Source: an uncultured Saprospiraceae bacterium
GTDB lineage: Bacteria; Bacteroidota; Bacteroidia; Chitinophagales; Saprospiraceae
DNA: 24,000 nucleotides
Assembly (NCBI GenBank): GCA_938003955.1
Contig: CALKXE010000021.1
Coordinates: forward strand, 11,895 to 35,894
Reading direction: 5' to 3'
The translations under genes were made by a program, and so were the position numbers. How positions within the stretch are numbered: position 1 is the first letter of the stretch; every line of letters starts with the position of its first letter. Below the pieces are notes generated by a model. It did not search any database, was not told where the DNA came from, and saw only the letters and a program-made list of their open reading frames with translations. Below are positions 22,255-23,176 of the stretch, in pieces.

Positions 22255-22403
22255 GGGATGCTTTCCACCCCCTAGCCCCCTCCAAAGGGGGATATGCGGG
22301 GCATGGCTCTGGCAATGCCAAAATCACAATACGGAATCACCTGCCCGAGCCACTCTAAATATCCCCCTTTGGAGGGGGCGAAGGGGGTGGACGTCAACAT
22401 CCC
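22255..22403. repeat. Repeat element R1: 149-bp unit with about 40-bp imperfect terminal inverted repeats, each containing a C5/G5 mini-hairpin
   Basis: The reverse complement of the right arm (22359-22390) is CCACCCCCTTCGCCCCCTCCAAAGGGGGATAT. The left arm (22265-22295) is CCACCCCCTAGCCCCCTCCAAAGGGGGATAT. Outer ends are GGGATG and CATCCC. Confidence 0.8.
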
Positions 22404-22409
22404 AAACAG

Positions 22410-22445
22410 AACAACAACAACAACAACAACAACAACAACAACAAC
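22410..22445. repeat. Perfect trinucleotide microsatellite (AAC)12
   Basis: Twelve uninterrupted AAC units counted directly. It ends 32 bp upstream of the DUF559 ATG. Confidence 0.95.
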
Positions 22446-22477
22446 CATACTTATATATTTAACGAAAATCTAAACCC

Positions 22478-22999
22478 ATGCTCCCACAGGCATCCAAAAG
22501 AAACAACTTTCACTACAACAAAAAGCTGAAACAATTTGCTAAACAAAACAAAAAGCAAATGCCGAAATCAGCTGTTTATATGTGGAAATTCATATTATCA
22601 AGTGGTCAGATGTTGGGATATAAATTCCGTAGAGAAAGACCAATTTTGAATTACATTGTTGACTTTGTTTGCCTAGAATTGATGTTAGTAATAGAAGTAG
22701 ATGGTATTAGCCATGAAACCGAGGAAGCATTTAGAAAAGATAGAAAACGAGATCAAAATTTGAAAGAAATTGGTTTTTCTGTTTTAAGATTTTCATCTTT
22801 GATTGTGATTAAAGACAGACCTTCGGTAAATGAGATTATTGCTGGATGGATTGAAGAAAATACAGATGGTCCTTCTATTGAGAGGGGAGGTAAACAAAAG
22901 AAGAAGGTTGTAAGTAAGATAGATAGTGGTCTTCCACCCCCGTTGCCCCCCCAAAGGGGGATTGAGCGCTTCATGGCTCTGGCAGATATAAGAATTTAG
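22478..22999 (+). CDS. DUF559 / Vsr-like (very-short-patch-repair endonuclease fold) protein; the 3' tail reads into repeat R2
   Basis: The core GYKFRRERPILNYIVDFVCLELMLVIEVDGISHETEEAFRKDRKRDQNLKEIGFSVLRF is the characteristic DUF559 pattern. The last ~25 codons (LPPPLPPQRGIERFMALADIRI) are translated repeat sequence, so the functional C-terminus is uncertain. Confidence 0.8.
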   Translation: MLPQASKRNNFHYNKKLKQFAKQNKKQMPKSAVYMWKFILSSGQMLGYKFRRERPILNYIVDFVCLELMLVIEVDGISHETEEAFRKDRKRDQNLKEIGFSVLRFSSLIVIKDRPSVNEIIAGWIEENTDGPSIERGGKQKKKVVSKIDSGLPPPLPPQRGIERFMALADIRI

Positions 23000-23054
23000 A
23001 AAAACATTAGCCCGATCCACCAAATAATATCCCCCTTCGGAGAGGGCAAAAGCG
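22931..23054. repeat. Repeat element R2: second, more decayed direct copy of R1
   Basis: Blocks shared in the same order as R1: TTCCACCCCC, GCCCCCnCCAAAGGGGGAT, CATGGCTCTGGCA, GCCCGAnCCAC, ATATCCCCCTTnGGAGnGGGC. A further R1-like tail (GCGTCAACAGCCAACTAGAAC versus ACGTCAACATCCCAAACAGAAC) lies at 23114-23134. Confidence 0.75.
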
Positions 23055-23176
23055 TTTAAGAATGAACGCTCACCACTATAGATTTACAGCAATGAGACAA
23101 TAAGAGGAAGTGAGCGTCAACAGCCAACTAGAACCAATCCGTCAACCTAAAAAGCACCAAACAAAAAACTTAACCT

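Follow-up and report, generated by a model that had tools for sequence, protein, structure and literature searches.

Among the described systems closest to the locus analyzed here are the repetitive extragenic palindromes and their inverted doublets (REPs and REPINs), with their associated tyrosine transposases (RAYTs), and the free-standing Vsr-like homing endonucleases. The locus lies in a 24,000-nucleotide (nt) stretch of a contig from an uncultured Saprospiraceae bacterium (assembly GCA_938003955.1; CALKXE010000021.1, positions 11,895 to 35,894), hereafter the window. Within it, a gene for a DUF559 nuclease sits between two direct copies, R1 and R2, of a GC-rich palindromic repeat (R) in the spacer separating nadV from prs; the arms of the repeat consist of a C-run/G-run hairpin followed by a G-rich box (G-box). 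This cassette resembles both RAYT/REP and homing systems and is a member of neither; its gene is not a Y1 transposase, and the GTAG tag is absent.

Like REP/REPIN-RAYT systems, the family to which the cassette belongs is built from short palindromes, each next to a conserved box, which pair as inverted doublets (head to head and tail to tail); a genome has dozens of such units in extragenic positions. In both, a nuclease-type gene is enclosed by units of its own genome in inverted orientation, and the sequence of the unit varies by lineage along with the gene. The gene itself differs, encoding a Vsr-fold PD-(D/E)XK nuclease (DUF559) rather than a Y1 HUH tyrosine transposase of the IS200/IS605 type. 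There is no general GTAG/CGTC tag, the box being GGGGGTGG or a variant, and CGTC follows the arm only in the subfamily of the window. Unlike in RAYT systems, the 3' arm overlaps the open reading frame (ORF), the gene changes locus and can be multicopy or tandem, and some gene-less copies have terminal inverted repeats (TIRs) of their own and 9-bp target site duplications (TSDs). A survey of REPs found some repeat families without a dedicated enzyme (Di Nocera et al., PMC3733652).

The free-standing Vsr-like (EDxHD) homing endonucleases, such as I-Bth0305I, share a homologous catalytic domain with the window protein (PMC3239194, PMC2677866). They too are small free-standing selfish genes that are present or absent at a conserved site and have hairpins beside the ORF. 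Those genes, however, reside in group I introns or between the halves of split inteins and have a unique target in a host gene, whereas DUF559 here occupies intergenic palindromic repeats at many sites. In addition, the window DUF559 is without the extra DNA-binding domains (NUMOD type) described for that family.

Full-text literature searches returned no paper linking DUF559 to palindromic repeats or to miniature inverted-repeat transposable elements (MITEs), and likewise none for REP with Vsr or for MITE with very short patch. The pairing of a DUF559 gene with palindromes across many lineages suggests an undescribed partnership between a selfish nuclease and a repeat. Nothing in the searched literature had led us to expect its anatomy and generality, which are solid; its mechanism we infer.

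The cassette at nadV-prs and at other loci

The nadV-prs spacer is 975 bp long, as opposed to 12 and 13 bp for the two preceding gaps in the operon. This disparity had been picked out in a first-pass annotation made from the letters alone, and every one of its sequence statements on the gap, the ORF, the repeats, the tails and the translation holds (Table 1). By placing this distance between nadV and prs and adding a polymorphic (AAC)n leader, the cassette may affect expression of the operon.

R1 is a near-perfect 135-nt hairpin. Its left arm (22264-22295; CCACCCCC-tag-CCCCCTCCAAAGGGGGATAT) and right arm (22359-22392; ATATCCCCCTTTGGAGGGGGC-gaa-GGGGGTGG) are 93% complementary, flank a center at 22296-22358, and are extended on the outside by GGGATG/CATCCC. 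The repeat folds into a single long hairpin (dG = -95.8 kcal/mol, z = -10.7), a stability equaled by 0 of 200 shuffled sequences. The 21-nt core of the arm occurs three times in the window, where shuffling (100 replicates) gives an expectation of 0.

R2 has in common with R1 the left arm, two islands (CATGGCTCTGGCA and GCCCGAnCCAC) and the inner right hairpin (23027-23047), in keeping with the proposal that the two are direct copies with conserved islands around the ORF. The left arm of R2 (22933-22962) is intact and lies within the DUF559 ORF, the last ~23 codons of which run into R2, such that this arm constitutes the C-terminal tail of the protein. The outer right box and tail of R2 are displaced to 23105-23137, beyond an insertion of ~55 to 70 nt. 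The tail 3' of R1 (ACGTCAACATCC...) reappears 3' of R2 as GCGTCAACAGCC..., which is the degenerate recurrence ahead of prs that the annotation had described. The left arms of R1 and R2 both translate as PPPxPxQRG in one frame. The DUF559 leader contains a perfect (AAC)12 microsatellite (22410-22445). In a metagenome contig of 99% identity (L001) it has nine units, and its length thus varies within the population.

Table 1. Coordinates of the cassette, its flanking genes, and gene-less relatives of the repeat (window positions unless a locus is named; a dot denotes no strand).
Feature	Location	Strand	Basis or remark
R1, intact palindromic repeat	22255..22403	.	arm comparison, folding, shuffles
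Element tail (ACGTCAACATCCCAAACAGAAC), then (AAC)12, then A/C-rich DUF559 leader	22393..22477	+	alignment with L304, L305
DUF559 / Vsr-fold PD-(D/E)XK nuclease ORF, 173 aa	22478..22999	+	Pfam DUF559
R2, decayed direct copy of R (whole extent 22931-~23137)	22931..23050 (up to insertion)	.	repeat comparison
Insertion of ~55 nt within R2, including small hairpin AGCGTTTAAGAATGAACGCT (23051-23070)	23051..23104	.	also in solo R of L214
R2 decayed outer right box and tail' (AGGAAGTGAGCGTCAACAGCCAACTAGAAC), then A/C-rich prs leader	23105..23176	+	alignment
nadV (nicotinamide phosphoribosyltransferase, NAMPT), upstream host gene	20786..22201	+	Pfam NAMPT_N and NAPRTase
prs (ribose-phosphate pyrophosphokinase), downstream host gene, continues past window end	23177..24000	+	ATG at 23177
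MAG-32 MITE copies, both families	L106, L130, L157, L164, L179, L196, L156; L108, L147, L195

The ORF matches Pfam DUF559 (PF04480) over residues 16 to 121 (E = 1e-24; 86.8 bits against a cutoff of 20.6), and PADLOC and NCBIfam searches returned nothing beyond DUF559. Among structures, the DUF559 profile matches 3HRL ("endonuclease-like protein," E = 3.7e-29) and, over the catalytic core, the homing endonuclease I-Bth0305I (3R3P, E = 2.2e-5), to which the window protein is, by profile similarity, homologous. All 25 sequences compared have the catalytic residues E73, D75, H79 and D88. Between the window gene and the copies at two other loci (L304 or L305), the ratio of nonsynonymous to synonymous substitutions (dN/dS) is ~0.06 with dS of >1, a ratio by which the nuclease is under purifying selection. 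A C7 homopolymer in the left arm of R2 (22946-22952) is C8 in L001, which turns the end of the protein from PPQRGIERFMALADIRI into ...PPPKGD; because this difference alters its reading, the C-terminal tail is, from the two sequences, not constrained as protein. In an exact-protein look-up, neither the window nadV product nor the 173-aa DUF559 protein had a record, and the 162-aa C8 variant was recorded.

To compare spacers, homologues of nadV were searched and their contigs were fetched. The nadV-prs site is occupied in the window and in L001, and the gene is missing from relatives with nadV identities of 93%, 91% and 85%, making the spacer polymorphic for DUF559 when checked as the first-pass annotation had advised. 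At 93% (L223), the spacer is 140 bp and contains a small GC hairpin and a "GAGCGTCAACATCC" tail; at 91% (L214-219), it is 331 bp with one decayed R-like element and then the tail; and at 85% (L220-222), it is 45 bp. The presence or absence at a conserved site that characterizes homing endonuclease genes is thus observed at nadV-prs.

An insertion of ~70 nt that separates the inner right hairpin from the outer box and tail is common to R2 and the L214 element and is missing from R1 and from the R copies at other loci. Because of this shared insertion, R2 is identified as the old resident copy, orthologous to the decayed solo R of L214. The single decayed R of the 91% relative fits the earlier suggestion that the ancestral spacer contained one R. 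The newcomer is then R1 together with its tail, the leader and DUF559, unless R1 was renewed by recombination.

The nearest homologues of the window DUF559 lie away from nadV-prs, at three other loci. These are between a BNR-repeat gene and a Por_Secre_tail gene (P0004, P0005 and P0007; 78 to 81% identity), upstream of a gene with a B12-binding domain (P0003), and after a glycosyltransferase gene (P0002). Alignment of the window with L304 and L305 reveals homology from R, which is only partial in L305, through the tail and the A/C-rich leader plus gene to the downstream R. The tail of the mobile unit (GGGGGTGGACGTMMACATCC), aligned across loci, reads GGGGGTGGACGTMMACATCCCAAnnAGAA. Because homology through R, tail, leader, gene and downstream R continues at other loci, these alignments assign the tail to the element and not to a target duplication. 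The idea that the DUF559 leader duplicates the prs leader was rejected, since only the first ~35 nt (the tail) align and the remainder is of low complexity; that the tail belongs to the mobile unit is a further reason against it.

The upstream side of the gene has a right arm and tail at all 11 loci inspected, and the downstream side has, again in 11 of 11, a left arm, often within the ORF, that is followed by a loop, a right arm and the same tail. The period from left arm to left arm is 660 to 670 nt both in the window and in L304. Despite the dS of >1, the arms and tail are ~90% identical between these two loci, and a change in the loop of the inner hairpin is compensatory between left and right arms (CCAAAGG/CCTTTGG versus CCGAAGG/CCTTCGG). 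At the start of the L304 contig (1-44), the 3' end of a second DUF559 gene directly precedes the upstream R, and several family representatives (P0241, P0242, P0281 and P0377) contain two or three DUF559 domains per ORF, suggesting that tandem arrays of the gene and repeat unit exist.

Brackets and dispersed repeats across lineages

The DUF559 family is very large and, to our knowledge, has been assigned no role. The profile matches 46,629 clusters (50% identity) at E of ≤1e-3 and 20,001 at E of ≤1e-10. A profile built from DUF559 relatives yielded 80 metagenomic loci at 36 to 61% identity, 70 of which were testable for a bracket, defined as an inverted match with a score of ≥17 between the 250 nt upstream and the 300 nt downstream of the gene. 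Such a bracket is present at 37 of the 70 loci. With windows displaced by 800 nt as controls, 0 of 90 had one, and the maximum score was 14. In 19 of the 37 bracketed loci, the downstream arm begins within the ORF.

The arms of these brackets differ by lineage and follow one grammar, consisting of a small C4-6/G4-6 hairpin, 2 to 4 nt, and a G-box (for example, GGGGGTGGA, GGGGGAGG, GGGGGATT and GGGTGAGG). The motif encoded by the arm, P..P...[RKEGQ]G, occurs in 28 to 29% of DUF559 tails, compared to 4.5% of control windows and <1% of domain bodies. Together with the brackets themselves, these frequencies bear out the first-pass expectation that DUF559 genes elsewhere would have such flanks. The junction "...ENAxVPPPxPRQRG" is conserved among many DUF559 homologues, indicating joint inheritance of the left arm with the gene. 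The arrangement accounts for a common annotation artifact, the proline/glycine "tails" on small endonuclease ORFs, and for contig breaks in metagenome-assembled genomes (MAGs) of Saprospiraceae.

A search of genomic stretches and viral contigs for the arm pattern CCCCCTYYGGAGGGGGN{3,4}GGGGGTGGA recovered it from at least 116 genomic stretches, almost all from Saprospiraceae MAGs and with dozens of copies per genome, so the repeat is, as had been anticipated, not unique to this locus. The specific pattern had no matches in viral contigs; a loose 17-nt version had 90 there, which were single and chance-like and were discarded. A fuzzy search located 199 arms, including 47 left-to-right pairs, mostly hairpins with loops of 12 to 100 nt, and 26 right-to-left pairs, 16 of which have spacers of 13 to 32 nt. 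Among the matches listed for the 116 repeat loci, no small gene family other than DUF559 recurs beside the arms, and no recurrent transposase family was found near them. In all seven DUF559-bearing stretches among these matches, an arm immediately adjoins the gene, and it does so on both sides in the three that are fully resolved.

Two gene-less brackets of a right and a left arm (L206 642-1547, 850 nt; L117 85-362, 220 nt) give weak matches to the DUF559 C terminus (E = 2e-5 and 0.013) and may be decayed cassettes. Arms also occur within genes: at L099 (4290-7703) and L201 (384-5435), a very long ORF contains arms of the same orientation, 304 nt apart, whose in-frame translations are ...PFGGGAGGG... 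and ...PSGGGEGGG.... One MAG labeled Halioglobus sp. (JBLHWH01), a gammaproteobacterial name, contains contigs with both the 91%-identical nadV (L214-L219) and Saprospiraceae arms (L109, L141, L144 and L197). This label probably reflects misbinning, and the few arm matches in MAGs labeled Brocadia, Chloroflexota and Bacteroidales may have the same origin.

Like the bacterial MITEs (Nezha, Correia/NEMIS, ERIC and RUP), the repeats are short, noncoding, palindromic, dispersed and mostly intergenic. In one MAG (MAG-32; JAHDFX01), the likeness extends to TIRs and TSDs: two gene-less MITE families of ~175 nt have the C/G arm module in their interior, the one with a 20-bp TIR (GTGTGTATAACAAATTGCAC) and clean 9-bp target duplications and the other with the TIR TAAGTTGCTATACAC and 9-bp target duplications. 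In contrast, no TIR or TSD of the MITE type was seen for R1 and R2 of the window, only a palindrome extension of 6 to 8 nt, and the module internal to the MAG-32 MITEs is shared with DUF559 brackets. The spacer of the tail-to-tail MITE resembles two sub-arm segments of a DUF559 bracket joined together, and this MITE could, judging from that resemblance, be a deletion derivative. No parent insertion sequence or transposase with the MITE ends was present among the loci examined, and a search for matching outer MITE-type TIRs around the MAG-32 DUF559 cassette (L185) found none.

Neither the window nor 20 related DUF559 loci had an Rfam match at threshold. The orphan Whalefall-1 RNA motif (RF01762; Weinberg 2010, PMC2864571), whose consensus GUAUCuCuCCUuGGGGaGaGA...AGgGuGAGGAC resembles one arm (hairpin and G-box), scored below its gathering score of 37 at two positions in R1, 22263-22295 (-) and 22359-22392 (+) (18.8 and 21.7 bits), and had no matches in the 20 other DUF559 loci. 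The second hairpin of this motif is missing from the R1 arms, and Whalefall-1 might in turn be related to repeat arms of this kind. Sense and antisense folding energies did not differ over 36 downstream regions (18:18, P = 0.12), the G-U pairs in left-to-right hairpins were similar on both strands (72 versus 65), and no + strand intrinsic terminator was predicted in 22100-23300. Because these results are all null, the palindromes look like features of the DNA, although transcription may pass through the arms. The lack of strand bias in folding and the C7/C8 frameshift support the noncoding function that the first-pass annotation had assigned to the repeats.

Mechanism and competing explanations

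The best-supported reading, to which we give roughly even chances, takes the block of ~900 bp for a selfish nuclease cassette, in which the DUF559 gene is inherited and moves together with its cognate palindrome and enters resident copies of R by recombination. The signature of the family is a nuclease ORF between inverted arms (a C-run/G-run hairpin, then a G-rich box), with the downstream arm often overlapping the 3' end of the ORF. At nadV-prs, a unit of R, tail, leader and DUF559 would have entered a spacer already holding one R (now R2), producing the order R1-gene-R2. We infer that the nuclease nicks or cuts the resident cognate palindrome, in duplex form or extruded as a hairpin, and that recombinational repair, or the integration of a circular gene-plus-R unit, brings in a copy of the gene and leaves R duplicated. 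Later recombination between R copies would delete the gene and leave a solo R, and the gene-less copies of the arm module, some of them amplified as ordinary MITEs, would be landing pads or relics. The systematic embedding of DUF559 in lineage-specific palindromes leads to the testable hypothesis that the nuclease targets the hairpins on either side of its gene.

Several observations weigh against the selfish cassette. About half of the DUF559 loci are without a bracket at the threshold used, and a DUF559 gene occurs in 7 of the 116 arm-bearing stretches among the matches listed. For solo repeats, no empty/occupied pair was found, and the orthologous pairs among the loci examined all carry the element. 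The gene-less copies in MAG-32, by having 20-bp TIRs of their own and 9-bp target duplications with the arms internal, point to mobilization by a DDE transposase and not by the Vsr-fold nuclease. Moreover, R and its tail could have been duplicated by site-specific or host recombination in which DUF559 had no role.

More tentatively, a large DUF559 clade may be the nuclease partner of widespread modular palindromic repeats, forming a PD-(D/E)XK counterpart of RAYT/REPIN. The nuclease would recognize cognate "hairpin + G-box" arms, homing into, or being maintained among, the copies that MITEs amplify. DUF559 is a candidate partner for palindromic repeat families without a RAYT, and this scheme, if true, would provide a function for a major domain of unknown function and an enzyme for repeat families that have none.

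It is rather unlikely, although it merits serious weight, that the palindromes are an independent MITE- or REP-like family moved by some other enzyme, with DUF559 as a passenger or with the flanks as its preferred landing place and with a host role for the gene (repair or defense). The TIRs and 9-bp target duplications of MAG-32 are typical of DDE transposition, 94% of the repeat stretches are without DUF559 among the matches listed, and CGTC-type REPs are likewise without a known dedicated enzyme (PMC3733652). Yet a passenger gene leaves unexplained why lineage-specific brackets of the same grammar recur in many unrelated lineages (37 of 70 loci versus 0 of 90 controls), why the junction of gene and left arm is conserved, how the gene, leader and R came to move jointly to four loci, and why, among the matches listed, other gene families are without brackets. 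We regard as improbable a second alternative, in which R is a folded, attC-like site and a circular ORF-plus-R unit, with DUF559 as cargo, is inserted at a solo R by an unknown recombinase or host Xer. The resemblance to integron cassettes (an ORF plus attC) lies in a small ORF followed by an imperfect palindrome, which may overlap its 3' end, and in the two flanking copies of the site. The copies in R-gene-R also look hybrid, R1 being intact and R2 joining a new left half to an old right one; the period is constant at ~665 nt; and L304 has signs of tandem units, as do some proteins with two or three tandem DUF559 domains. However, there is no IntI or other integrase, attI or cassette array in the window or the inspected loci, there are no RYYYAAC/GTTRRRY boxes, and R copies are dispersed singly with a cargo that is always of one family.

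The least probable of the explanations, and one to which we attach very little weight, is that the arms act in mRNA, where pairing or hairpins would insulate, stabilize or repress translation of a potentially toxic nuclease, and that solo copies are relics of lost genes. R1 is extremely stable as RNA, the two gene-less brackets at L206 and L117 retain weak remnants of DUF559, and published work describes hairpins, probably regulatory, that lie 5' of endonuclease genes of the free-standing Vsr-like and GIY-YIG types (PMC2677866). Against a role in mRNA stand the strand symmetry of folding and of G-U counts, the lack of an Rfam match at threshold and of a predicted + strand terminator, and the dozens of gene-less copies with TSDs, which are DNA-level events.

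Other features of the window

Within the NAD-salvage operon, between a NUDIX/NadM-like gene and nadV, is a 329-aa ORF (19783-20772) with no Pfam or NCBIfam match. The NAD operons of L001 and L220, compared by size and position alone, have a 329-aa ORF without a Pfam match at a comparable position. Farther upstream, the ORF at 10003-11448 contains about five tandem units of 21 nt (10182-10286; four overlapping 42-nt copies), and a perfect 27-nt inverted repeat with a 9-nt loop lies just 3' of it (11452-11514). The window also contains two paralogous pairs, each comprising an extracytoplasmic function (ECF) sigma factor and a downstream gene (9464-11448 and 11683-13752).

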